Part shown: one piece after another, positions 1 to 17,848 of the stretch | How the letters are laid out: the number at the start of each line of letters is the position of its first letter | Position numbering within the stretch: the stretch's first letter is position 1 | Virus record (IMG/VR): IMGVR_UViG_3300032281_000691 | Location: 1 to 32,396 of that record | Strand: one strand, 5' to 3' | DNA length: 32,396 nt | DNA from: a virus | Lineage: Duplodnaviria > Caudoviricetes | Made by a program: the position numbers and the translations under genes | Notes under the pieces: generated by a model | Database searches by the model: none | What the model was told of the DNA's origin: nothing | Seen by the model: the letters and a program-made list of their open reading frames with translations, nothing else

Positions 1-99
1 ATCCACACCTTTGACATACCATCCTTTTTCAAGGCATAGGCGGGTGATGTATGATCCAATAAAACCTAAACAACCAGTTACATATACTATTTTAGTCAT
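1..99 (-). CDS. NAD-dependent epimerase/dehydratase (NDP-glucose 4,6-dehydratase-like), N-terminal fragment cut by the window edge
   Basis: Not in the ORF track. Hand translation from the ATG at 99 gives MTKIVYVTGCLGFIGSYITRLCLEKGWYVKGVD, a Rossmann TGxxGFIG motif with an acidic residue after beta-2. ATGA overlap with the upstream stop at 96-98. Confidence 0.85.
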   Translation of the reverse strand, partial: MTKIVYVTGCLGFIGSYITRLCLEKGWYVKGVD

Positions 100-779
100 A
101 AAAAATCCTTGAAATGTGTATTTAAAATATCAATTCTTCTATTATTTCCTGCACCCGTCAAGTGTACCAAAAATGATTCAGAATTCCATACACCAACTGG
201 TTCTGGTCTAGTTTCCCATCCCTGAGCATATTGTTGTTTTGAGGGAGTGGATCCAAGATATTTATGTTCTAAACTTTTAGTTCCAATTGAAAAATTTTTA
301 TGTATAACATTCAAAGTCTCTTGTTCGGAACTGAACGATGGACCTATTTTGTAGAATAATTCCAACAAGTTATCAGTATTATTTGTTTTTTGAACTATAA
401 AATTTCCAGTGCTAAATGATTCTTTCCACATCCAATCATAAGATGCAACAAATGTTGTATTATCATCCATAAAATCTTCAAGTCTATAATCATAATTTGT
501 TATTAATGAATCTGCATCTATCCACATCACTGCATCATATGATAACAACATTTCCATTGCTCTTATGAATCTTAATTGTCCTATATGTTTATCGCTGAAT
601 ATATTTCTAGGATCCTTTCCAAAGGATCGTAAGGACATCAAATCATAATTGTTATATTTTACATATTTATTTTTTGATGGAAGCGTAAGATCAAATACTT
701 CTTGCATATACGCATCGGTACATCCATCAGGCCTAATATCATCAGTATAACCAGTTAATAATAAAACACGCTTATTCAT
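96..779 (-). CDS. GT-A glycosyltransferase, GT34/Mnn10-like
   Basis: YDAVMWIDADSLITN DxD motif, FSTGNFIV, EQETLN and FLVHLTG resemble the galactosyl transferase GMA12/MNN10 family; lies in a sugar gene cluster. Confidence 0.7.
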   Translation of the reverse strand: MNKRVLLLTGYTDDIRPDGCTDAYMQEVFDLTLPSKNKYVKYNNYDLMSLRSFGKDPRNIFSDKHIGQLRFIRAMEMLLSYDAVMWIDADSLITNYDYRLEDFMDDNTTFVASYDWMWKESFSTGNFIVQKTNNTDNLLELFYKIGPSFSSEQETLNVIHKNFSIGTKSLEHKYLGSTPSKQQYAQGWETRPEPVGVWNSESFLVHLTGAGNNRRIDILNTHFKDFL

Positions 780-792
780 TATATCTCATTTC

Positions 793-2127
793 TCATAGTA
801 TTGGTAAAGATACTCTATTGTCATTAAAAAAGTCATTCAAAGTCTCTTCTATGTAGTCAAGCTGAACATCAGTTATAACTGGACTTGTTCCTAAGAAGAA
901 GGTATCCGTCGTGACCTTTCTTGCATTGGGGTAATTACGTATGACCTCAAATTCATTCATCATGCCGGAATAAGCTGGCTGAAGCATAATATTTCCGGCA
1001 AAGTATGGCCTGGTTTGAATCTTATTTTCTTCAAAGTAATTTACGATATCCTTTCTCCTGAAAGGGGCATCGTCGCGGATGGTAATAGCAAAGGCAAACC
1101 AGCTAGGATCAGCACCTTCCGTAGCCTTTGGTAAAATTAGCATGTCCTCGTATTTTGAGAAGATCTTCTGAAGTCTTGCATGATTGTGCTTTCTCTTCTC
1201 AATTATTTGTGGAAGCTTCTTCAGTTGCGCCAGTCCCATTGCGGCTTGCTGTTCTGTTGGTTTTAGATTATATCCAATCTCGTCATACACATACTTGTGA
1301 TCAAAAATTTCATCTGGAAGAGCAGGAAGCCAATTAGAGAACCGCTTCTTACACGACCCGTTCTTCAGGAGATTGGCCTTCTTCCCGACGCAATAGCAGC
1401 CTCTACCCCACTCTCTGAAGCTTCTGGTAACTATCTCTTGCTGGTGTGTGTTACATGCTACAAATCCGCCCTCGCCCATAGTAATATGGTGTGCAGGATA
1501 GAACGAGCAGCTAGCAAGTTCGCCAAAAGAACCAAGAGGCTTATTCTTGTAAGTCGATCCCAGAGCATCACAGCAATCCTCAAGAAGCACAAGATCGTAC
1601 TTCTTTACGATTTCCATGAGTCTATCCATATTTGGAGGATTTCCTAGAACATGAGCAAATGTAATGATCTTACAACCATCCTTAGCCTTTTCCTCTACCT
1701 GATCTAGGTTTAGATTTAGCGTATCAAGATCAATATCTACAAATACAGGCTCAAAACCAACCTGGAAAATGGGATTGATCGTGGTAGGGAATCCGGCTAT
1801 TGGAGTAATTACCTTAGTTCCCTTTGGGAAATTGTATAATCTTTTTGATGTCATTGCAGACATCATAATTAAATTTGAGCTACTTCCGCTATTTGTAAGA
1901 ATACCGTATTCTTTCCCCATTAGACGGGGAAATAATTGCTCAAAGCGAATTCCACTTTCTCCCAGTGCAAGCCATCCGTTCAATAAAGACTTGGTTACTT
2001 CAACATATTCATCTGCTGTAAAATAAGATCCAGCATACTGTACCCAGTCCTGTCCAGCCACCCATACTTTACTCTGGTTTTTTTCGTTGATATATTCTTC
2101 AATAGATTTTAAAATATGTTCCATCAT
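793..2127 (-). CDS. rfbH: CDP-4-keto-6-deoxy-D-glucose 3-dehydrase (E1/DdhC/RfbH), DegT/DnrJ family, PMP and Fe-S dependent
   Basis: SFYPAHHITMGEGG (His in place of the PLP Lys), LEDCCDALG, WGRGCYC, FDHKY, GYNLK and TNSGSSSNL are all RfbH/E1-type motifs. Start adjusted to MMEHILK (2127 or 2124). Confidence 0.88.
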   Translation of the reverse strand: MMEHILKSIEEYINEKNQSKVWVAGQDWVQYAGSYFTADEYVEVTKSLLNGWLALGESGIRFEQLFPRLMGKEYGILTNSGSSSNLIMMSAMTSKRLYNFPKGTKVITPIAGFPTTINPIFQVGFEPVFVDIDLDTLNLNLDQVEEKAKDGCKIITFAHVLGNPPNMDRLMEIVKKYDLVLLEDCCDALGSTYKNKPLGSFGELASCSFYPAHHITMGEGGFVACNTHQQEIVTRSFREWGRGCYCVGKKANLLKNGSCKKRFSNWLPALPDEIFDHKYVYDEIGYNLKPTEQQAAMGLAQLKKLPQIIEKRKHNHARLQKIFSKYEDMLILPKATEGADPSWFAFAITIRDDAPFRRKDIVNYFEENKIQTRPYFAGNIMLQPAYSGMMNEFEVIRNYPNARKVTTDTFFLGTSPVITDVQLDYIEETLNDFFNDNRVSLPIL

Positions 2128-2962
2128 GAATGCCCATTCCCCAATCATTCAAATTGGGAATATTATACTTTTCAATACTTTCTCTTATAAATTTTGCTTT
2201 GAAACTATTCTTACGATCATGGTTATCGTAGATCTTTGGATTAATTTTTAAGGGAAAATCAAAGTGACTATAGTTCCACATAAAATTATTAACAGATGCA
2301 TCATATGCGCTTGTGGGTATAGTGTCAATACCAAATCTAACACGATTTACATAATCACATATTTTCCAATAGTACTGCTTAAGTGCTACGGTATCTTTAC
2401 ATAACCATTGAAGGTGTGATATGAATATATTTGGAATTTCTATTCTACCTTGTTTACCTGGAACCGGTAAATGTTCAGAGTGCATTTGTAGATTTTTAAA
2501 TATTGCCCTTGAACTATAAGAACCAATTCTATCCTTATAGTTAACTCCCCAAGGACCATCAATTCTTATTGTATTTACATCGGTATATTGTATCCATCTA
2601 CTATGAATAAGAGTATCCTTATAACTATTCATAATATTTTCCAGATCTTCTTTGGATAAATTTCCATCGAAATATTCATCAGTATCCAAACAAACTATAT
2701 TCCCACTATGCTTAAAGGCCTCGTCATATAGTCTTTGTCGTATTTCAGATTCTATATTTGTTGTTATATCTTCTCTATTGATATTACTGTGCAATACAGA
2801 CAATATGTTATATTTTTTTGCATTATCCATTAAAAATTCATATGTTCCATCTGTACAAGAATCTACCATAAAAACAAAAGCATCGGAATATTTTTGCCAG
2901 TGAGGCATCATTTCCTGTATCAAAAAAAGTTCATCTCTAGTAATTGTTGTCTGAACAATCAT
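2099..2962 (-). CDS. Glycosyltransferase family 2-like protein
   Basis: N-terminal TITRDE, VDSCTDGT and CLDTDEYF DxD motif; ATGA overlap with the upstream gene. Confidence 0.75.
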   Translation of the reverse strand: MIVQTTITRDELFLIQEMMPHWQKYSDAFVFMVDSCTDGTYEFLMDNAKKYNILSVLHSNINREDITTNIESEIRQRLYDEAFKHSGNIVCLDTDEYFDGNLSKEDLENIMNSYKDTLIHSRWIQYTDVNTIRIDGPWGVNYKDRIGSYSSRAIFKNLQMHSEHLPVPGKQGRIEIPNIFISHLQWLCKDTVALKQYYWKICDYVNRVRFGIDTIPTSAYDASVNNFMWNYSHFDFPLKINPKIYDNHDRKNSFKAKFIRESIEKYNIPNLNDWGMGIHDGTYFKIY

Positions 2963-4446
2963 TTTTTATCCTCATACAAATAATGATACATTATCTCTTC
3001 GATGTATATGTGTGTTTTAAGTAAATTAGATTTTACCAATCTTTCCCAAAAGTTTGAATCTTCACCATCGCTGATATCTGGAAACCCTATTTGTTTTGCT
3101 ATATCTGCTTTTATTGGATTTAAATGATTTAATGGTCTGTGCTGAGTGCCTTTACTGTCTTTAAAACTATCTAAATTTGCCGCACTATGACAAAATAGCA
3201 ATGATGGTTCATTTTTATAATAAAACATTCCACAAAACCCAATACCGTCATAATCGTATGTGTCCATTATTAATAATAATTTTCTGAGATAAGATTCACT
3301 TATTATATCATCATCGTCTACGAATGAAATATATTTTGCAGTACAAGAATCCAAACATTCTTGTCTTTTTTTCCCTATGCTTTTAACTTTATTATCATGA
3401 TTAATAGTAACAAGTAAACGATTTTTATAAAGATAAGGACAATACTGATCTAGTAATTTAAGTAATCCATTTAACTTCTCTTTTCTTTCTGGAATAGTCA
3501 ATATGCATATGTTCCAAAGAATATCTTTTTTTGATTTCATTGTATCAATATAATTTTGTATCTCTACTTGTATTCTTTCAAAAAAACAAGAAGCATATTT
3601 TTGTGCCCTAATATAATTTTCCTCTATGAATGGTTTCATGCTTTCATATAATTGTTCATCAATAGAATTTACACTATTGATCAATTCCTGATAACTATTA
3701 ACTATTATCATCCCACGAACATCAAAAAATTCTGATATATTAGGACAACCAAAATAAATTGGAATAGTTTTAGTAACCAAACAGTCTATAAGTTTTTCAG
3801 TAAAATATGAATTTTCTCTAGAACTTTCTATTACTATACTAAATTGAGTTCTAAACAGATTTATCTTATCATCATTTGGCAATAATCCATCATGCAATGT
3901 ATTGGAAAAGATATTGTTATTTGTCGGTGATCTTGTGCTAGAATAAAATAAACTTGGAATTTTAATGTTTTGACGGGTGTTCCAAATATGCTGTCTTAAA
4001 TTATAACCTTCTTTGCCCAAATATGATGTTGTTATAAAGGAAACACCAAACACTTTATTCTTTACACTTTCGTATATTTTTTCATTAAAAACACCAAGCG
4101 AATCTAAATTAACTTTATCCTTATTCAACCATGTTGTTCCATATGGAAAAAAAACAGAATTAGAAACAGAATCTAATATTTCCTTTTCGCTGGTGAGAAT
4201 TAAATCATACTTGTGTGAATTTCTAATTATATTTTCATTTGTTTCTCTGTTAACGGAACTACTGGGTTCATTTGAGCAAATGAAAACTTTAAATCTACTT
4301 GGATCCTTAAATTGAATATTCACATAAGAAACATGGTGTCTCCTGGGCACATCTCCAAATCTAGTAAAGTGTATTTCGCATGGAGTATCTAGCGTTATTG
4401 CTTTAGAAGAAAAGTATGAACCATTAATAATAATAGAATCAGTCAT
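2959..4446 (-). CDS. Two-domain glycosyltransferase: GT10 (alpha-1,3-fucosyltransferase-like) fused to GT2
   Basis: GT10 signature FSIVIESSRENSYFTEKLIDCLVTKTIPIYFG, then a GT2-like domain ICILTIPERKEKL...KYISFVDDDD...GEDSNF. Confidence 0.78.
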   Translation of the reverse strand: MTDSIIINGSYFSSKAITLDTPCEIHFTRFGDVPRRHHVSYVNIQFKDPSRFKVFICSNEPSSSVNRETNENIIRNSHKYDLILTSEKEILDSVSNSVFFPYGTTWLNKDKVNLDSLGVFNEKIYESVKNKVFGVSFITTSYLGKEGYNLRQHIWNTRQNIKIPSLFYSSTRSPTNNNIFSNTLHDGLLPNDDKINLFRTQFSIVIESSRENSYFTEKLIDCLVTKTIPIYFGCPNISEFFDVRGMIIVNSYQELINSVNSIDEQLYESMKPFIEENYIRAQKYASCFFERIQVEIQNYIDTMKSKKDILWNICILTIPERKEKLNGLLKLLDQYCPYLYKNRLLVTINHDNKVKSIGKKRQECLDSCTAKYISFVDDDDIISESYLRKLLLIMDTYDYDGIGFCGMFYYKNEPSLLFCHSAANLDSFKDSKGTQHRPLNHLNPIKADIAKQIGFPDISDGEDSNFWERLVKSNLLKTHIYIEEIMYHYLYEDKK

Positions 4447-4447
4447 A

Positions 4448-5110
4448 TTATACCTTTAATAAATTAAATTGTATGTCTCTTTCCGGAAGACCCATTTCTC
4501 TTAGAGATTTTTCCTTTGAACTATTATTTGCTATACCCATAGTTATGTATGGTTTCATTTCCGGAGGTAGTTTATCTGTTGGCCAGATTGCATAATTTAC
4601 TGGTAATACTCCTAGTCTCAATCTCTTAAGAAACTCCGGTAAAACATCAAACAATAGCACTTCGTGATCAAATACTTTCGGACCAGTATTGGAAGCATTA
4701 TAATGACACTTATCAACCCAAAACTCAAGAAATTCAAATACTATAGATTTTGGTGTTAGATATATTGGTGAAGCCTTTGGTAGTTTAACATCGATCATCG
4801 ATGGAATAATGCCAGAATAAGCAAATATCATATCACAGTGATTTTCTTTATCATCAAATATGCTAAGTTCATTATGAATCAAAGAATCTATATCTAACCA
4901 AACTATAGGTTTATTTTTAAGTTTAAGCATGGTTAAAATAAATTCTGGTTTTCTTAAACAATTCATTCTATAACTACCACTACTCTCTAACTTTCTTATG
5001 TCATAGGGGACATTATGCTCTTCGCAGTTTTTTGCTAAACGAGCAGCATGATCACTATAATAAGTGTGTCCATCTATGTCGGAAAAAAATGATATAATTT
5101 CAGTTTTCAT
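4448..5110 (-). CDS. Nucleotide-diphospho-sugar transferase (GT-A fold)
   Basis: KPEFIL...IVWLDIDS DxD motif, DHEVL and LPVNYA. Start adjusted to the ATG at 5110 (MKTEIISFF), a TAATG overlap with the upstream stop. Confidence 0.65.
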   Translation of the reverse strand: MKTEIISFFSDIDGHTYYSDHAARLAKNCEEHNVPYDIRKLESSGSYRMNCLRKPEFILTMLKLKNKPIVWLDIDSLIHNELSIFDDKENHCDMIFAYSGIIPSMIDVKLPKASPIYLTPKSIVFEFLEFWVDKCHYNASNTGPKVFDHEVLLFDVLPEFLKRLRLGVLPVNYAIWPTDKLPPEMKPYITMGIANNSSKEKSLREMGLPERDIQFNLLKV

Positions 5111-5877
5111 TAAATATAGTTCCAATTTTTCTTAAATATTTTATTAATGTAGTCAAAATTTTGATACATTTTTTCACCACCTTTTCGTAATCTGGGATAA
5201 CAGTAAATTTTGTCAGTAGTATTTAGAACTTCAACAAGATAACACATTGAAGTTTCGACTGTATGAATCTCTTGTGCGTTTTCCAACAACCAACAAAAAT
5301 CAAATATGTGACAGGGGGATCCGTCATTGTATATAATTTTATATTCACTTTCCAAATTTATTTTGTAAGTATTGTATGGACTAGTGAAATACATGGTATT
5401 TACAAATATAAACTTCTCTCCCCTTTCAATCCCATATTTCTTTCTAAGAGAATCTTCTCTGTCTAATTTTCTCTTAAATTGAAAATATTTCTGCCAATCA
5501 TCAAAGGATATATTCAATATTTTATATTTTGAATACATAATGTCTATATCATTTGAATTAAATGAAGATGTTCTAAATGGATAATAGTGAATTACACCAC
5601 CACTAACGGGAGTGCTACTAAATGTATTTGATTTATAATTATCATACAAAACCTTATGCCATATTTTGACACTCTCGCTGAACTCTGCCTCGTTCAACGG
5701 AAAACTAAAATATGAAGTCTTGGGAGTTATCAAATATTCGTGAAGATAATTATATTTTGGATGTATTGGCCAAATAATATTATCCATTCTTTCTGATATC
5801 TCATATACTGCTTTCTGCAAAAAGAAGATGTCCCCCAATCCTCTAGCCTGATCAATTAATGCTATCCGCTTAGTCAT
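5110..5877 (-). CDS. Putative glycosyltransferase (GT-B/GT9-like N-terminal motif)
   Basis: ARGLGDIFF N-terminal motif and C-terminal LLENAQEIHTVETS resemble GT9-like proteins; cluster context. Confidence 0.5.
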   Translation of the reverse strand: MTKRIALIDQARGLGDIFFLQKAVYEISERMDNIIWPIHPKYNYLHEYLITPKTSYFSFPLNEAEFSESVKIWHKVLYDNYKSNTFSSTPVSGGVIHYYPFRTSSFNSNDIDIMYSKYKILNISFDDWQKYFQFKRKLDREDSLRKKYGIERGEKFIFVNTMYFTSPYNTYKINLESEYKIIYNDGSPCHIFDFCWLLENAQEIHTVETSMCYLVEVLNTTDKIYCYPRLRKGGEKMYQNFDYINKIFKKNWNYI

Positions 5878-6250
5878 TTTTATATCTTGGTAATATTTTT
5901 TCTTCTTTTAAGAGACTATTAGTTATTTCATTAATTTTTTGTTTTATGGAATATCTCTTGTCGTTAATTTTATAAACAGATCGTGATAGCAAAATAAACT
6001 CATCATCAAATGTGTTTTGACTTTCTTTGATTCTTAATTTATCTTCTATTTCCCATAATTCTAAATTAGTGGTGTAAAGAGATTCTAATATTTCTTCATC
6101 AATGTGCAACTGATCCACTAGTGGTTTAATTGCATTATACTCCTCATGAATATTAAAATACTTCATGGAAAATGGAATCGCTTTTCTTATTTTAATTTTT
6201 AAAATTGTATATTTGTCTACAATCTCACCATTAGACACTTCTATTTTCAT
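5870..6250 (-). CDS. Conserved helical protein, DUF6165-like, associated with glycosylation clusters
   Basis: MKIEVSNGEIVDKYTILKIK...LWEIEDKLR...RSVYKINDKR...EEK pattern recognised from memory of this family. Confidence 0.7.
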   Translation of the reverse strand: MKIEVSNGEIVDKYTILKIKIRKAIPFSMKYFNIHEEYNAIKPLVDQLHIDEEILESLYTTNLELWEIEDKLRIKESQNTFDDEFILLSRSVYKINDKRYSIKQKINEITNSLLKEEKILPRYKND

Positions 6251-7085
6251 TTTTAATAATATTAGTATAAAGAATATCGTCTGAAGACTTTAGTAATTTA
6301 ACTCTTTCTAAATTGTCCTTAACTGCCTCTAACTTACTTTCATATAATTCTGGAGTAAGTATAATAGGATCAAAGTCAGAAGTCAATTGAATTATTCCAT
6401 CTGAATTAAAGTGTTCAGATATATCGGGTGCTCCCCAGTAAATTGGTATAGTACCAGATGCGAAACAATCTGTTATCTTTTCTGTATAGTATGTCGAATA
6501 TGAATCATTTTCGATCACTATAGAAAATCTATATGGAACTGTTGCGTTAGATTTATCTGGCCAAATATTCTCACCATAACCAAATCTTGTGGTGCCAGCT
6601 GCGCCACCATAGACATCAATAACATCTTTGAACTTTTCTGCTACTATATGTCGGATTGCATGTCCAAATGTTATTTTTTTAGGAGAAGCAATCAAAGAAA
6701 CATTTTTAGTTTTCAATGGTAGATCTCTATAAATGCTCAACCAAGGTAAATTGCTACCGGCCGGACTATAGAGTATGTTTGGATATTTGCATAAACTTCG
6801 CTCTGAAACAAAAACATAATCAAAAGACTCACTTATTTTTTTCAACTCTTTTTCAAATAACTCTCGCGGGAAGGAAAGATGAAATATAGCCCTAGATTCA
6901 CAAACCCATGCTATTTTTTTCTCTCCTTCTTTCTTTGGTTCTTGTAATCCCAAAGCAATACCACGATCAATATAAACCTTTATTGGTCTATCCTGATCAG
7001 TCCATCTAAAAAGTTCTGGTAGTTTATTCGAACACGAAGAATATTCAACTGGAAACGGAGCACCTATCGCTTGTATCTCATTCAT
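6231..7085 (-). CDS. Glycosyltransferase family 10 (fucosyltransferase-like)
   Basis: YRFSIVIENDSYSTYYTEKITDCFASGTIPIYWG, the GT10 nucleotide-sugar binding signature. Confidence 0.82.
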   Translation of the reverse strand: MNEIQAIGAPFPVEYSSCSNKLPELFRWTDQDRPIKVYIDRGIALGLQEPKKEGEKKIAWVCESRAIFHLSFPRELFEKELKKISESFDYVFVSERSLCKYPNILYSPAGSNLPWLSIYRDLPLKTKNVSLIASPKKITFGHAIRHIVAEKFKDVIDVYGGAAGTTRFGYGENIWPDKSNATVPYRFSIVIENDSYSTYYTEKITDCFASGTIPIYWGAPDISEHFNSDGIIQLTSDFDPIILTPELYESKLEAVKDNLERVKLLKSSDDILYTNIIKNENRSV

Positions 7086-11486: not shown

Positions 11487-11797
11487 GTAGCAACCCAATG
11501 AAGACCATCATTATCACAAACTCTAGTATAAAGAAGTCCTACATCCGGATTAAACCAACGGTCACCTTCTGAAGAAACTTCAGGTTCTTCTGTTTGACAA
11601 TAAAATGTTGGTGTTGATGTTAATTTTTCCCATCCACTATTCTTAAATAATGGATTACTTCCCATTATATTTTTTGTGGCAATATAATTTATTCCATTGT
11701 AAGTAACCACAGAACCTTTGGCATATTCAATTAAACGACCATTTGGATCGTATTTTCTATAGTTTCCTACAAAATTTAAGTTATCTGCTTCGTTCAT
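11483..11797 (-). CDS. Small protein with a CBM5/12-like module and a phage fibre-type GDxWF repeat
   Basis: YAKGSVVTYNGINYIA...P....GW resembles chitin-binding type 3 modules; P....GDRWFNPDVGLLY...WVA resembles repeats in phage tail fibres; ATGA overlap with the upstream gene. Confidence 0.55.
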   Translation of the reverse strand: MNEADNLNFVGNYRKYDPNGRLIEYAKGSVVTYNGINYIATKNIMGSNPLFKNSGWEKLTSTPTFYCQTEEPEVSSEGDRWFNPDVGLLYTRVCDNDGLHWVAT

Positions 11798-12870
11798 TTT
11801 TGACTACTCAGGAATAAACAATGTTCGTTAATTCTTGATTTTGGTTTGGACTCTTTAGTATTTATAGAAGAAAATAATGTTTCAGTATATTTAAAGTTTA
11901 CAGAATTTAAGTTATTAATTTTAATAAACTTATCGAATCCACGAATCTTCTTAATACTTGATTTTTCTTCATCTACACCCAAAAGAGTAGTTCCCTTGAA
12001 TGAAAGCGTTTCGTTTGTTTTTGATTTATAGATTGTTAGTGATTTGGTCTTAATATTCAATACGACCACAGAAGAACAACCAACAATCTGCTCCGGTTTC
12101 ATGGAATTAATACCATTAAAGGATGGGAGATATTTGACCTTGGATGCAATTTGTTGTGGGGTCTTATTCTTTTTCTTTCTTGGCTTACGATTTTGTCGCT
12201 TTTCCTGAATCTTTGAATTGTAATAATTCAAAAGTTCTTCTTGTGTTTCAATGTAAGAAACCAATTGTGATTTAGTAAAGTACGAATACCCCTCTACCAA
12301 TTGATCATCCTTCTTATCCCTCGCAAGGTACAACTCATTTAACTTGTCTTCTATAAAATGAATAACCTCTGTATAAAAAGCAGGAGTAATTTCAAACTTA
12401 TCACAAGTTTTCTTTACATTGATATCTTTCTTTTTCTTTTTCTGAATTAGGGTAGAACATTCATCAATGAAAATATTAATATCTACAAGATGCTTGCACA
12501 ATGTATCTGCAAACCTCTTTGTTCGTTCTTCTATTGACTTATTCTTACTCTTTAGATAATCGGCATATTTGTTTTCTAACTTAAGTAGGAAATCATCAAA
12601 TATCTTCTTTTCAGTTTCTGGTATTGAAATGCCACGATATAGCATTCTTGCCCAGATACCGAATGGAGTATAATCTTTCGTTTTACCGTGAGAATAGATC
12701 ATAGGATCTCTCTTAAGATTGGCAACATATTCCGTCACCCATTTCTTATGATCCTTGGATGTGCTGATACCACGATAGGTATTATATGCGTTATAAACCT
12801 CTGCCTCGTACTCCTTAGCATCAATTGATGGAGCGGGAGTTGGTTCTTCAAATGTTTTTTTCTTTGCCAT
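11794..12870 (-). CDS. Conserved hypothetical protein of T4-like phages, Lys-rich
   Basis: QLVEGYS, RKPRKKK, SKVKY, SMKPEQIVG, LSFKGTTLLGVD and RINEHCLFL resemble an uncharacterised family of aquatic T4-like phages. Confidence 0.7.
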   Translation of the reverse strand: MAKKKTFEEPTPAPSIDAKEYEAEVYNAYNTYRGISTSKDHKKWVTEYVANLKRDPMIYSHGKTKDYTPFGIWARMLYRGISIPETEKKIFDDFLLKLENKYADYLKSKNKSIEERTKRFADTLCKHLVDINIFIDECSTLIQKKKKKDINVKKTCDKFEITPAFYTEVIHFIEDKLNELYLARDKKDDQLVEGYSYFTKSQLVSYIETQEELLNYYNSKIQEKRQNRKPRKKKNKTPQQIASKVKYLPSFNGINSMKPEQIVGCSSVVVLNIKTKSLTIYKSKTNETLSFKGTTLLGVDEEKSSIKKIRGFDKFIKINNLNSVNFKYTETLFSSINTKESKPKSRINEHCLFLSSQK

Positions 12871-14426
12871 TACTCTTTATAGAATACAAAAACTGGTTCG
12901 TATTTCAAGTATGTATTATTAACTTTGCAATAATTTTTACACTTTGGTTTGCCGTCTGAGTCTAGTCTATTTTGTCCCGGCATTCCTTCCATTGCCATCT
13001 TCATCGTTTCGACATATTTCATTCCCAAACTTTCCAAAATATCTCTAGAATCTTTTTCTAGTGGCAAATATTTACCGCCAATTTGAATATCTGCAATATT
13101 CCAAAGAAGATAACGATCTTTCTTCAACCATTTAACACATGTTTCTAGTGTCGGTCTTAAAAATCCATCTCGCCAAGAATCATAATTAGAAAACTTCTTA
13201 TATGACTGTGTATTATCATTTGAATATGCCTCTCTATTGAAATAGGGAGGAGAAGTAAATACAAGATCTACTTCCTTTGAAATATGTTTTCCTATTTCCT
13301 CAGAACCATACTGATACAACTCAAAGGTATGGGTGTCGCTAAAGAAAGAGTTACCTCTATATGTTCTAGTATTATAGAAGTTTGCTAAGTTGTGGTATTT
13401 TGACGAATTCTCTGAAAACCAGTTTTCGCTATTTGGATCAGTTCCGATATAGTGTATGCGAACACGATCAGACATAGACATGCAACCGAGAAGACGACCA
13501 CCCCAACCGCTAGAAGGGTCGTAAATAGTAAGTAACTTATTTCCTGTAATATGAGAAGTATATTTTTCATAAAGAAACTTTGCAGTAAGAGGTGGGAAGT
13601 TCACCGCAGGTTGAATATAACCAATCCTAAACGAAGGAAAACACTTTGGAAATATTCGTTGTCCCTTTTCATACACTCTAATATGGAAAACATCATCACT
13701 CTCGATGTTATGTATGTCAAAGGTTGAGTAATGACGATAAGAAAGTTTAGATTTCCACTTAAGAAATAAATCTTTGTCAAGAGACAGTATTCTAGATTGT
13801 TCTAGTTGAAAATAACCAGTATTCAGTCCATTCTTCTTCTTGTTCTTTTCTAGAATAAAATCATAACCCTGAAATATTTCAGGACTACTAAAGAATGCTT
13901 CCATCCATTCGTCGCCAGTAGATACATCAATGATTGAATATTTTGGATCGTTCTTAATTGAAGATAGAGCAAAATTATAGAAGGAATCTCTACGAATATG
14001 TCTCTTTGCACCCTTGATCATTCTAGGAAGATACTTATCATCCGCAAATAAATCATAGATTGAGTAACCAGTATCATTTTCGCTATAATTAATTCTGGTC
14101 TTGTACATATTAGAAAAGAACTGATCTGCTTCAGATCCAATTCTTGATTTATTGATAATTACATCTTTTGTTCCGGTTATCTCATCAACAAATTCAAATT
14201 GATGAATCGGATAACTAACAAGTTTATTAAACTCATCAATTATTTCTTGTTCGTTTTTACCAGTACGCGGGGGACAACCATAGGTATCCCATATATCAAG
14301 AATAGTTTTACGCATCTTCTTGACCCAATCTTCAAATTCGGGTTCAGTCATAGAAACAATGTCTTCATAAAAGACATTGATATCACTATTTAAAACATAT
14401 TCGTTCCGTTCGTAAAATGGTTTCAT
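12870..14426 (-). CDS. SAM-dependent amino-methyltransferase-fold protein (SPPY type; N4-cytosine/N6-adenine DNA MTase-like) with a long N-terminal extension
   Basis: Motif I-like YDPSSGWGGRLLG, YIGTDPN, motif IV DLVFTSPPYF, LLWNIAD, YEPVFVF. Start adjusted to the ATG at 14426 (MKPFYERN), an ATGA overlap with the PLP-enzyme stop. Confidence 0.85.
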   Translation of the reverse strand: MKPFYERNEYVLNSDINVFYEDIVSMTEPEFEDWVKKMRKTILDIWDTYGCPPRTGKNEQEIIDEFNKLVSYPIHQFEFVDEITGTKDVIINKSRIGSEADQFFSNMYKTRINYSENDTGYSIYDLFADDKYLPRMIKGAKRHIRRDSFYNFALSSIKNDPKYSIIDVSTGDEWMEAFFSSPEIFQGYDFILEKNKKKNGLNTGYFQLEQSRILSLDKDLFLKWKSKLSYRHYSTFDIHNIESDDVFHIRVYEKGQRIFPKCFPSFRIGYIQPAVNFPPLTAKFLYEKYTSHITGNKLLTIYDPSSGWGGRLLGCMSMSDRVRIHYIGTDPNSENWFSENSSKYHNLANFYNTRTYRGNSFFSDTHTFELYQYGSEEIGKHISKEVDLVFTSPPYFNREAYSNDNTQSYKKFSNYDSWRDGFLRPTLETCVKWLKKDRYLLWNIADIQIGGKYLPLEKDSRDILESLGMKYVETMKMAMEGMPGQNRLDSDGKPKCKNYCKVNNTYLKYEPVFVFYKE

Positions 14427-15154
14427 GCGCCTACATTCCAAAACAGAGCACCCGGTTTTGCGTATTGCTTCATAAAGGCCCATGCTTTGGCGTCATATGT
14501 GGGGGCGGAAGGAAAGGGAGGAGCATCAGCCGCTGCGACGGCCTGAAAGAAAGGAATGGCACACTTGAACATTTTTGCTCTCCCTAACTCCTTCGCCCCC
14601 ATTTTATGACCAACAGACACACAATTAAATTCAGCATTAGGCCATGCGGCCTGTAATCCTCTAGTTAGAGTTCCGCTCGATCCTACTGTCCAGACTTCTT
14701 TCGGTTGAACAGGAAGTTGTCTAGCCAGATCCCGTATGGAGTCCAATACCTCTGGACAATCAAACCCAATAGGAAACAATTTACGAGTAAAAGGATCTGA
14801 GTTAACATAATCACGCGCTCTTTTCTGAGTTACAGATAGCATACCGTTCTCTACCCAGTTCATTGTAGCACCGTATGATATTGCTTTCAACTGGTAAGGA
14901 TGAAGATTCTCCATCTTTCTTTTTGCCATAAACAATATACATTTCTTATTGAAATGCTGACATACTCTTGCCAACGATATCTGAGCATAACCAGTTGCAG
15001 GCGAAGAACCATAAACCAATTCATCGCCGACAAAATCCTTCACTAACGATTGAACAAATCTAGTTTTTGAACCACCATCAATAAGATCATCACGGACTAC
15101 TAAAAATCCATCATGTTCCATAATTACAGGAGGGGGATTTAATTCATCAATCAT
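14423..15154 (-). CDS. PLP-dependent enzyme, fold type II (ACC deaminase/D-cysteine desulfhydrase-like), compact phage form
   Basis: VVRDDLIDGGSKTR (Schiff-base Lys), VGSSGTLTRG phosphate loop, PTYDAKAW, LFWNVG. Confidence 0.85.
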   Translation of the reverse strand: MIDELNPPPVIMEHDGFLVVRDDLIDGGSKTRFVQSLVKDFVGDELVYGSSPATGYAQISLARVCQHFNKKCILFMAKRKMENLHPYQLKAISYGATMNWVENGMLSVTQKRARDYVNSDPFTRKLFPIGFDCPEVLDSIRDLARQLPVQPKEVWTVGSSGTLTRGLQAAWPNAEFNCVSVGHKMGAKELGRAKMFKCAIPFFQAVAAADAPPFPSAPTYDAKAWAFMKQYAKPGALFWNVGA

Positions 15155-16866
15155 AGCATTCTACTAAAATTGTTTTTCTTTTCGAATGAAATTGTATTTT
15201 GAAACTTATCAGCAAGTTGATCTGATTTGTGACTAATCACATAGATGTTCGATTTATCACTTACAGAATTTAAAAGTTTCATCAATTCTTCCATACCTAA
15301 AGTGTCCAGAGAAGAATCAAATACTTCATCAAGAATCAAAAGATTACAATTAACACTATTCTTTGCCCTGGCAATTTCTCTCCAAGCAAGTAAAAGTGCC
15401 AAATCAATTCTCATCTTTTCACCTTCGCTGAAATTCATATAACTCATTTCATCCCGATGACGACTCTTAATAGTTTCATTAAAATCTTCATCTAAAATAA
15501 ATTGCACGAAGAAATCCATAGAAGTTAAAAACTTGTTAATGTACTTATTCATAAAGGGAAGATAATACTTGATAATCTTTGCCTTTACTCCAGAGTCCTT
15601 TAGAAGATCAGAAGCATATTGATAATAGTGCTCCTCATCTTTCATTTCAATCTTCTTGGTTTCCATTTCGACTAAAGAAACCTTCATGGATTCTAACTTT
15701 CCCTTTTCTAGAATAATTTCTTCAGTTGAAATATTTGCCTTTTTTAAATCTTCAGAAAGGGTTTTTAGAAACTTCTTTCCATTATCAATTGATGTTTTCT
15801 TTTGAAGAAGTTGAATGTTCTTGGTTTGAACAAATGAAGAAGAAGTATTAATTTCTTCAACACGAGCATTATATTCCTGAATAGTTTTTTCTAATTCAGA
15901 AATTGCTTTTTCGTATTCTTCTTTCTTCTTATTTCTTTTCTTCAATTCCTTCTCCTTTACTTCTGAAGTAATTGATTGACAACAAGAAGGACATGTTTCG
16001 TTTTCTGTAAAGAAACTAATATCTTTAGAAAGCGAAGATAAGTTAACTCCAATCTTGGTTTTAAGAGTTTTAATTTCAGTTAACTTATCAAATACATTAT
16101 CTTTATCCTCTATAGAAGACAGTGTAATTGCTATAGATTTTTCTAATTCAGAGATATCATGTAAAAGATCAGCCAATTCAGATTCTATCTTTTGAATCTT
16201 TTCATTGGTATGTTCTATATCTTTATTGCTTCTAGTCTCTAAACTATTGATTAGATCATTCTTTGAATTAATCTTTTCTTTTTGAATCTCTATACTATTG
16301 TTTAACTCTCTAAGATTTTCTTTAAGAGCAGATAGTTTTCCCTTCAAAATCATATTCATAGAACTAAAAACATTGATATCCAAAATATTTTCAATAACTG
16401 CTCGGCGATCAGATGCATTTAATTGCATGAAAGGGACAAAAGATGAACTACCAAGAATCACCACTTGTGTGAATGTTTTGTAATTCATTTTAAGAATTTG
16501 TTCTTCCAGAACAGACTGATAATCTACACTCTTGGCATCTTGATTTAGAAGTTCACCATTTCTATGAATTTCAAATATCTTTGGGTTTAATCCTCTACGA
16601 ACAATATATTGTTCATTGCCCTTTGCAAATTCAATTTCAACTAAACAATTTTTAGAATTAATAGAATTTGCAAGTTGAGGAATATTAATCTTACGAAATG
16701 GTTTTCCAAACAAAGCAAAAGTAATAGAATCTAAAAAAGCAAAAGACTTACCACTCCCATTGCTTCCGCAGATGAGAGTGGTATTATTTTTGTCTAGATT
16801 CAATTCCGTAAAGGTATTACCAAAAGAACCAAAGTTCTTAAATTTAACCTTAGAAAATTTTATCAT
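15151..16866 (-). CDS. gp46: Recombination endonuclease ATPase subunit gp46 (Rad50/SbcC-like)
   Basis: Walker A GSNGSGKS, FTQVVILGSSSFVPFMQL, coiled coils with CPSC zinc hook, FSEGEK signature, LILDEVFD, ISHK. Confidence 0.96.
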   Translation of the reverse strand: MIKFSKVKFKNFGSFGNTFTELNLDKNNTTLICGSNGSGKSFAFLDSITFALFGKPFRKINIPQLANSINSKNCLVEIEFAKGNEQYIVRRGLNPKIFEIHRNGELLNQDAKSVDYQSVLEEQILKMNYKTFTQVVILGSSSFVPFMQLNASDRRAVIENILDINVFSSMNMILKGKLSALKENLRELNNSIEIQKEKINSKNDLINSLETRSNKDIEHTNEKIQKIESELADLLHDISELEKSIAITLSSIEDKDNVFDKLTEIKTLKTKIGVNLSSLSKDISFFTENETCPSCCQSITSEVKEKELKKRNKKKEEYEKAISELEKTIQEYNARVEEINTSSSFVQTKNIQLLQKKTSIDNGKKFLKTLSEDLKKANISTEEIILEKGKLESMKVSLVEMETKKIEMKDEEHYYQYASDLLKDSGVKAKIIKYYLPFMNKYINKFLTSMDFFVQFILDEDFNETIKSRHRDEMSYMNFSEGEKMRIDLALLLAWREIARAKNSVNCNLLILDEVFDSSLDTLGMEELMKLLNSVSDKSNIYVISHKSDQLADKFQNTISFEKKNNFSRML

Positions 16867-16870
16867 AATA

Positions 16871-17848
16871 TCAATTCAACTTATTTTCAGGAACAACCAT
16901 AGATCTAAATGTAGGATTGGGATCGATGGATGTTACCTCAGATTGTAACACATCTGGTGTAGTAGTTTGCATAAAACTTTCAAAATTTTCATCAGATTGT
17001 ACAGGAATAGTCTCCACTATTGGTTTATCATCCTGCGGAAGAGAAGAAGTGGGTTCAACCTTTATTAGTTTTCCAACCGGAAGTCCTTCCTTTACTCTGC
17101 GATCATAATCTTCTGCTCTTGCCTTGCCCATTTCAATTAATTTTTCCGTAGGCATTTCATATATCTTTTCACCCTTTTCGTTTATAGTACCATTTCTACA
17201 ACCACATCCTCGCTTTTTCTCTTGCGCTGATTGCGGATAATCATGTGGTCCTACTTGATATCCTTTCTGAATAGACTTTACTACATAACTAAGTCCTTCA
17301 GGTTGAACCTTGGGATTATTAGCCTCATTGCGTAATGTTTTAGCATAACCAGAACTATAATACCAAGTAATTTCTGTATCCTTCTTTATATCCGTCAACG
17401 CATAGAATCTATAAAGTTTAAATGCATTGTCCTGTACAATATAAGCATTTGGTTTTTCAGAATGATTGTAAATTGAACCATTTCCAAACATTACCGCCAT
17501 GCTCTTACCATTCTTTTGACATATATTGCAATTGCAATCCCATGTCATAGCATAACGATGAAGTGCTTGATCTTTATTATTAGACCAAGTAGTGTCTAGT
17601 AATAAGACTGGAAATTCTTCAATGACATCACCAGCACTTATGTCTTCGTTTGCAAATACACCATAACCACTTATATTAGACTTTCCAATATAAGTCTTAT
17701 TGATGAACCTTTCCTTTTTTGCGTAACTATTTGTATTGTAATCGAATGAACCATGATAATGCGAATGACTAGTATATTCTGGTTCAGTTTCCATAACCTG
17801 TATGTTGTTATTGCCAGTAAGACCCGAATTTGTATTATTTTCACTCAT
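16871..17848 (-). CDS. SET-domain protein (putative protein lysine methyltransferase)
   Basis: SET motif I SNISGYGVFANEDISAG, motif III YNHSEKPN, motif IV ALTDIKKDTEITWYY; CNCNIC insert; GCGC downstream; low-complexity C-terminus. Confidence 0.88.
   Translation of the reverse strand: MSENNTNSGLTGNNNIQVMETEPEYTSHSHYHGSFDYNTNSYAKKERFINKTYIGKSNISGYGVFANEDISAGDVIEEFPVLLLDTTWSNNKDQALHRYAMTWDCNCNICQKNGKSMAVMFGNGSIYNHSEKPNAYIVQDNAFKLYRFYALTDIKKDTEITWYYSSGYAKTLRNEANNPKVQPEGLSYVVKSIQKGYQVGPHDYPQSAQEKKRGCGCRNGTINEKGEKIYEMPTEKLIEMGKARAEDYDRRVKEGLPVGKLIKVEPTSSLPQDDKPIVETIPVQSDENFESFMQTTTPDVLQSEVTSIDPNPTFRSMVVPENKLN

Follow-up and report, generated by a model that had tools for sequence, protein, structure and literature searches.

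Two pyridoxal phosphate (PLP)-dependent enzymes of phage thymidine hypermodification, gp52 of phage M6 and gp226 of phage ViI, decarboxylate amino-acid adducts in DNA; a free primary amine is required, and Lys36 of gp52 has been proposed as the lysine that holds PLP (PMC8989533). Transfer from S-adenosylmethionine (SAM) of its 3-amino-3-carboxypropyl (acp) arm has been described for TYW2, which has a Rossmann fold, and for Tsr3/TapT, all acting on RNA nucleobases, and in microcin C synthesis MccD, a protein of SAM methyltransferase fold, is proposed to transfer acp before the PLP domain of MccE decarboxylates it to aminopropyl, in an order that is not fully settled (PMC10491745). Here we describe a pair of genes in a 32-kb fragment of an uncultured T4-like phage (IMG/VR record IMGVR_UViG_3300032281_000691, which comprises only that fragment; its 32,396 nucleotides are called the window below). 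One encodes a 243-residue PLP-dependent enzyme of fold type II (14423..15154) and the other a 518-residue class I Rossmann SAM-dependent transferase with amino-methyltransferase motifs (12870..14426); both genes, their parts and their two immediate neighbours lie on the minus strand. The gene pair is real, strongly coupled and widespread. With a probability of roughly 0.6, and arguing from sequence comparison, we propose that the transferase would place the acp arm of SAM on a DNA base and that the PLP enzyme would then decarboxylate it, leaving an aminopropyl base.

The PLP enzyme matches a single PHROG family, phrog_7093 (E = 4e-39), to which M6 gp52 itself belongs (E = 2e-159 on the same profile). 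When profiles of the two proteins were compared with hhalign, they aligned with a probability of 98.2 (E = 6e-14, 27% identity); a C-terminal PFP-x3-YD-x-KAW...FWN motif was aligned between them, and Lys30 (15065..15067), the predicted Schiff-base lysine, which is invariant in 121 of 121 aligned sequences, fell opposite Lys36 of gp52. Judged by these alignments, the enzyme belongs with M6 gp52 in one family and retains the lysine, and it is predicted, in the manner of M6 gp52 and ViI gp226, to remove CO2 from an amino-acid-like adduct bound to DNA. Homologues of similar length number 1155, and a sequence search of the PDB gave weak matches to tryptophan synthase beta (best E = 0.006). A single-sequence AlphaFold model of this enzyme was set aside because of its predicted local distance difference test score (pLDDT) of 35.

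Unlike the M6 and ViI enzymes, this one is partnered by a SAM-dependent Rossmann transferase, often fused to it, and the adduct would come from SAM. The 5-hydroxymethyluracil (5hmU) kinase and the amino acid:DNA transferase (ADDT) were found in none of the four complete phage genomes that bear the pair, in a search that was positive in M6, and in none of five partial T4-like relatives (27–78% complete). The initial annotation had noted that these partners are missing from the window and had named a 5hmU pathway encoded elsewhere as an alternative; the former observation was borne out, and the latter found no counterpart in the four complete genomes. None of the 36 window open reading frames (ORFs) scanned matched a restriction endonuclease, 5hmU kinase, ADDT or thymidylate synthase in Pfam and PHROGs. 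The neighbours of the pair, one of them of unknown function, matched no endonuclease family in Pfam, PHROGs or NCBIfam, in keeping with the earlier remark that no restriction nuclease lies beside the two genes; NCBIfam assigned no family. On these searches, the pair belongs neither to the 5hmU pathways nor to a restriction–modification system. Its likeness to MccD/MccE is one of architecture only, a SAM Rossmann transferase paired with a PLP decarboxylase: the microcin system acts on a peptide-nucleotide phosphate, MccD was not among the PDB sequence matches or the listed structural matches, and a general Pfam scan of the window found no microcin genes. We take the resemblance as analogy rather than kinship.

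The transferase matches Pfam N6_N4_Mtase (E = 1e-8) and phrog_12517 (E = 9e-13), and PDB sequence searches with it gave no match. Its AlphaFold model (mean pLDDT 88) has a class I Rossmann fold whose closest solved structures are TrmN, Trm11 and Trm14 (Z 15–16, root-mean-square deviation 2.7–3.0, about 180 residues aligned), which are exocyclic-amine tRNA methyltransferases; TYW2 and Tsr3/TapT, with their RNA substrates and no PLP partner, lie outside its top structural matches. Motif I (DPSSGWGGR, residues 303–311, 13494..13520) precedes motif IV (SPPY, residues 392–395, 13242..13253, the predicted base-binding catalytic loop), with no large domain between them, and both motifs, already picked out in the initial annotation, are present and strongly conserved: none of the 120 aligned sequences departs from Asp303, Pro304, Ser305, Gly307, Trp308, Gly310, Arg311 or SPPY. 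Arg311 occupies motif position 9, where 105 of 108 distant relatives whose motif could be read also have arginine. The conventional motif I of DNA methyltransferases that act on N4 of cytosine or N6 of adenine is FxGxG. With these enzymes (PF01555) the family shares the Rossmann fold and the placing of motif I before an SPPY motif IV, but its motif I, the glycine-rich DPSSGWGGR with the conserved arginine, differs from the DPFTGSGTT and DNFIGIGTT of two conventional methylases at the related locus L051, and it is tied to decarboxylases.

The N-terminal half of the transferase, described at first as unexplained, is now partly accounted for. In a global profile alignment, residues ~35–145 (13992..14324) align with the N-terminus of short family members of 280–420 residues and appear to be a family subdomain, which is likely to serve recognition of the DNA target. 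Residues ~150–265 (13632..13979) form an insert of about 110 residues specific to the long form, largely gapped against the short members, with conserved basic and aromatic residues; no catalytic family was found in it, and its atlas matches were unnamed viral clusters with scores of at most 0.81. As far as can be seen from these comparisons, the N-terminal half is not a second enzyme. Homologues of similar length number 2392, and there are 3672 clusters at 50% identity. Some long-form transferases (P0357, P0363, P0364, P0365 and P0372) carry a further C-terminal domain of about 200 residues with no Pfam match, and structural relatives of the model in BFVD occur in pithoviruses, pandoraviruses, Bacillus phage G (gp294) and salmon gill poxvirus.

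The two genes belong together well beyond the window. Confirmed viral PLP loci numbered 559; in the best 80 of them, a transferase was present at 73, adjacent at 55, within ~2.5 kb at 17 and further away at one, and the seven loci that had none all end less than 2.5 kb downstream. Most of these loci come from related T4-like phages, and independent cases were therefore sought. They were found among 98 longer PLP homologues. In 77 of these the PLP domain sits as an insertion between motifs I and IV of the transferase, in seven (six with a GWG of the window type) it follows both motifs, and a further six show one motif and eight none. Two proteins, P0378 and P0411, are full-length relatives of the window transferase (36–37% identity) fused to PLP domains, in both orders. 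Among cultured phages, the enzymes are fused in Erythrobacter phages ZS04 and R6L and Pseudanabaena phage Pam4, adjacent in Microcystis phage Mae-JY30 and Mycobacterium phage Vincenzo, and 1 kb apart in Staphylococcus phage Alsa_1. Adjacency spans T4-like, lambda-like, mycobacterial and staphylococcal phages, with fusions in several domain orders, and on the tree the PLP partner was gained or lost at least 14 times. The linkage across phages that the initial annotation had proposed as a check is strong, and it is highly probable that the pair is functionally coupled in nucleic-acid modification.

Several loci in this collection have features of their own. The GenBank annotation of Mae-JY30 (L001:6111-7702) misleads: it names the transferase ParB/sulfiredoxin and labels the PLP enzyme a DNA modification methylase. 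In P0338 the PLP domain is fused to a PCIF1-like domain, a different methyltransferase-type partner. An Asp/Asn beta-hydroxylase-type 2-oxoglutarate (2OG) oxygenase is fused to the PLP gene or lies just before it in P0273 and P0256 and at L018, L099, L102, L103 and L105, with one triple fusion to PLP and transferase domains; it may hydroxylate the side chain. L051 (7225-12716) and L052 hold a cassette of short transferase, PLP enzyme, DUF1599, SAM decarboxylase, Mom, GNAT and two conventional N6/N4 methylases.

The suggestion of aminocarboxypropyl transfer, advanced in the initial annotation, finds independent support in a sister subclade linked to SAM decarboxylase. In the cultured relatives ZRG1 and P2559S a SAM decarboxylase gene overlaps the transferase gene in place of the PLP gene, and motif I reads D-x-F-A-G-D-T-V-F against D-P-F-A-G-G-S-V-R in the others. 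We gathered 365 loci of clade B, the branch that holds this subclade, by motif and blind to their neighbours; three had no readable motif and 61 had less than 1 kb downstream, which left 301. A SAM decarboxylase was present at 151 of 153 loci with Asp6/Phe9, none of which had a PLP gene, and at none of the 148 others, 47 of which had one, a share that may be raised by the choice of the non-Asp loci, whose ranking followed their similarity to a query linked to PLP. As the loci include contigs retrieved twice, clusters are fairer than locus counts: at 90% identity, SAM decarboxylase accompanied 67 of 69 Asp6/Phe9 clusters and PLP 40 of 123 others; at 75%, SAM decarboxylase accompanied all 41 Asp6/Phe9 clusters, none with PLP, and PLP 21 of 74 clusters of Gly/Arg forms, the rest having neither. 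What we take to be the self-cleavage motif is kept in 155 of 157 linked SAM decarboxylases. Only eight columns separate the Asp group from the other, the changes from Gly to Asp and from Arg to Phe among them.

These two positions have a counterpart in spermidine synthase, where D103 and V106 of the motif VIGGG-D103-GG-V106 govern whether the enzyme takes decarboxylated SAM or SAM. There D103, to which the amine of decarboxylated SAM binds, is believed to repel SAM's carboxyl; the D103I change makes the enzyme transfer methyl instead of aminopropyl, and V106T aids the binding of SAM (PMC3725402). In the usual motif-I register, taken from sequence alignment and not from structural superposition, D103 and V106 correspond to positions 6 and 9. 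At these sites the sister subclade carries Asp and a hydrophobic residue, like spermidine synthase, whereas the window protein has Trp308 and Arg311 and is on that ground predicted to use intact SAM; it also differs from spermidine synthase in keeping the motif IV of nucleic-acid amino-transferases. The simplest reading is that the family moves the long arm of the cofactor, with the Asp subclade using aminopropyl from decarboxylated SAM and the Arg forms acp from SAM. In the clade of the window, SAM decarboxylase was found in none of five partial relatives and, among 91 clade-A loci, only at L051.

As a first step, the 518-residue protein would transfer the acp arm of SAM, not its methyl group, to a base amine in newly made phage DNA, with methylthioadenosine as the by-product; the acp arm is preferred because the PLP relatives depend on a free primary amine, and an acp arm offers one whereas a methyl group does not. 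The PLP enzyme would then decarboxylate the DNA-bound adduct, and a 3-aminopropyl base with a positive charge would remain. In family members that have no partner the acp base would be the end product; where SAM decarboxylase is the partner, a single step from decarboxylated SAM would give that aminopropyl base. The SPPY motif suggests N4 of cytosine as the target, with N6 of adenine and N2 of guanine as alternatives. We infer each element of this scheme, namely acp transfer, decarboxylation on DNA, DNA as the substrate and the choice of base; what has been shown is the anatomy of the genes, the fold, the conservation of active-site residues, the linkage, the fusions and the exchange of partners. 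The purpose is likely a block to host nucleases and possibly an aid to packaging.

Several observations weigh against this proposal. The Asp6 subclade forms a single clade (support 0.989), and for that reason the link with SAM decarboxylase counts as one evolutionary event; the subclade is also only remotely related to the window protein (profile E = 5e-12, over the C-terminal part). The equation of Arg311 with the clade-B Arg9 follows an ungapped MAFFT register, and hhalign places a two-residue gap there. At L051 and L052 both PLP enzyme and SAM decarboxylase lie near an Arg9 transferase, which counters strict exclusivity. The nearest solved structures of the transferase are true tRNA m2G methyltransferases. 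In three sets of transferase loci, some with short flanks, a PLP gene was near in just 29 of 80, 18 of 80 and 7 of 80, and no residue separates PLP-linked from solo transferases; that the transferase so often stands without a PLP gene implies that its product is usable alone, with the PLP enzyme as an optional finishing step. Among cultured phages, phiCTP1 carries the solo form. Finally, palindromes are depleted in the window (ACGT, 16 seen and 85 expected; AGCT, 46 and 105; also TCGA), with ACGA/TCGT in excess. As the window avoids ACGT, AGCT and TCGA, any mark is probably not a genome-wide protection and would be site-limited or not fully protective.

Some of these points would sit well with an ordinary orphan methyltransferase for N4 of cytosine or N6 of adenine, in which case the PLP enzyme would act on some other substrate and the linkage would reflect co-regulation of DNA-modifying genes. 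The Pfam N6_N4_Mtase match and SPPY motif agree with such a role, as do the methyltransferases among its nearest structures and the majority of family members, which lack a PLP gene nearby, and ORF1 of phage R6L has been called a methylase in print, by annotation (PMC5463345). We nevertheless consider it unlikely: it leaves unexplained the PLP domain inside the catalytic domain of 77 proteins, the fusions in several orders, the repeated gains or losses of the PLP partner and a motif-I switch that tracks SAM decarboxylase, and the four complete genomes offer no other source of a PLP substrate.

It is rather improbable, too, that the order of steps is reversed, the PLP enzyme decarboxylating SAM itself and the transferase then moving aminopropyl, with the same end product. 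PLP enzyme and SAM decarboxylase are alternative partners, an insertion of the PLP domain beside the SAM site would permit channelling, and such an order has not been fully set aside for MccD/MccE (PMC10491745). Yet the PLP-linked transferases keep Gly or Trp at position 6 and Arg at position 9, like the solo forms, and are without the Asp of the SAM-decarboxylase-linked forms; moreover, the characterised PLP relatives act on DNA adducts (PMC8989533). A similarly small chance attaches to the same chemistry on RNA, for example tRNA, or on a small molecule instead of phage DNA. Its best structural matches are tRNA enzymes, and the acp transferases known so far have RNA or small molecules as substrates (PMC10491745), but the PLP relatives act on DNA (PMC8989533) and the genes lie among replication genes in T4-like phages or, in others, fused to ParB before the terminase. 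The latter arrangement recalls the described phage ParB–terminase methylase loci (PMC4738411), to which the clade-B relatives correspond; the window gene, by contrast, has neither ParB nor terminase alongside, its neighbours being gp46 and a 358-residue gene.

Fold type II includes deaminases and dehydratases as well. That the PLP enzyme, after acp transfer, deaminates the adduct to a keto acid, eliminates or racemises it, sometimes with a 2OG hydroxylase, is the least probable of the alternatives: it draws on this breadth, on the annotation of Vincenzo gp2 as a carboxylate deaminase and on the fused or adjacent 2OG hydroxylases, but the swap with SAM decarboxylase points to loss of CO2 and both characterised family members are decarboxylases (PMC8989533), so that decarboxylation is favoured over deamination for the PLP step.

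The window runs from terminase, sheath, portal, capsid, uvsY, uvsW, gp55, gp47, a SET-domain gene and gp46 through the PLP and transferase genes to the 358-residue gene, RNase H, clamp, clamp loaders, regA and a sugar-modifying cluster. The compact PLP gene overlaps the transferase gene by ATGA, as first described, coordinates and junction both being confirmed, and a second ATGA joins its start to gp46 (15151..16866, phrog_77, E = 9e-158), a recombination ATPase. For the transferase, the ORF caller placed the start at 14483 (537 residues), and the ATG at 14426 (518 residues), which forms the ATGA with the PLP stop, is supported by the same junction in 45 of 80 related loci. The coupling to gp46 claimed in the initial annotation holds for the overlap but not for membership of the system: gp46 was rejected as a functional partner, the coupling being clade synteny that is missing outside T4-like relatives. 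The 358-residue gene of unknown function (11794..12870, phrog_11903), which overlaps the transferase stop, occurs in 43 of 82 T4-like loci and has no link outside the clade of the window phage. The SET-domain gene (16871-17848, Pfam E = 1e-15), between gp47 and gp46, is present in 31 of 82 related loci. After regA, positions 96-7085 carry glycosyltransferase-like genes and an RfbH-like PLP aminotransferase, in a cluster that varies among relatives and may serve to glycosylate DNA, virion proteins or the surface of the host. Scans for promoters and terminators gave 53 hits where 43.7 were expected, which is close to chance.

Part of the idea may already be in print as a prediction: in 2013, Iyer and co-workers reportedly predicted phage DNA methylase-like genes that use modified SAM and are linked to SAM decarboxylase, which may cover the sister subclade. 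The literature within reach, outside which most subscription papers lie, contained no description of the pair or of acp or aminopropyl DNA bases, and no measurement on these genes was found in PMC5463345, PMC11001980, PMC9837993, PMC8256090, PMC13229309 or PMC13444090. For the family at large we lean, by a little, towards the view that a large family of viral proteins now labelled N4/N6 DNA methyltransferases (phrog_12517/498-like, with loci in the thousands) put the amino-acid arm of SAM on DNA rather than methyl. They would produce the acp base when alone and the aminopropyl base by way of a PLP enzyme afterwards or, with the Asp switch, a SAM decarboxylase beforehand, and the result would be a class of DNA acp/aminopropyl transferases with a new family of bases, some of them further hydroxylated. 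If this is true, many genes counted as DNA methylases are misannotated, and phages can make bulky cationic DNA bases from SAM with just one or two enzymes, without a special nucleotide pool. The primary amine that these enzymes would add to DNA could be of use in labelling and in studies of packaging and of how nucleases are evaded, and cultured phages exist for the PLP-linked, SAM-decarboxylase-linked and solo configurations.

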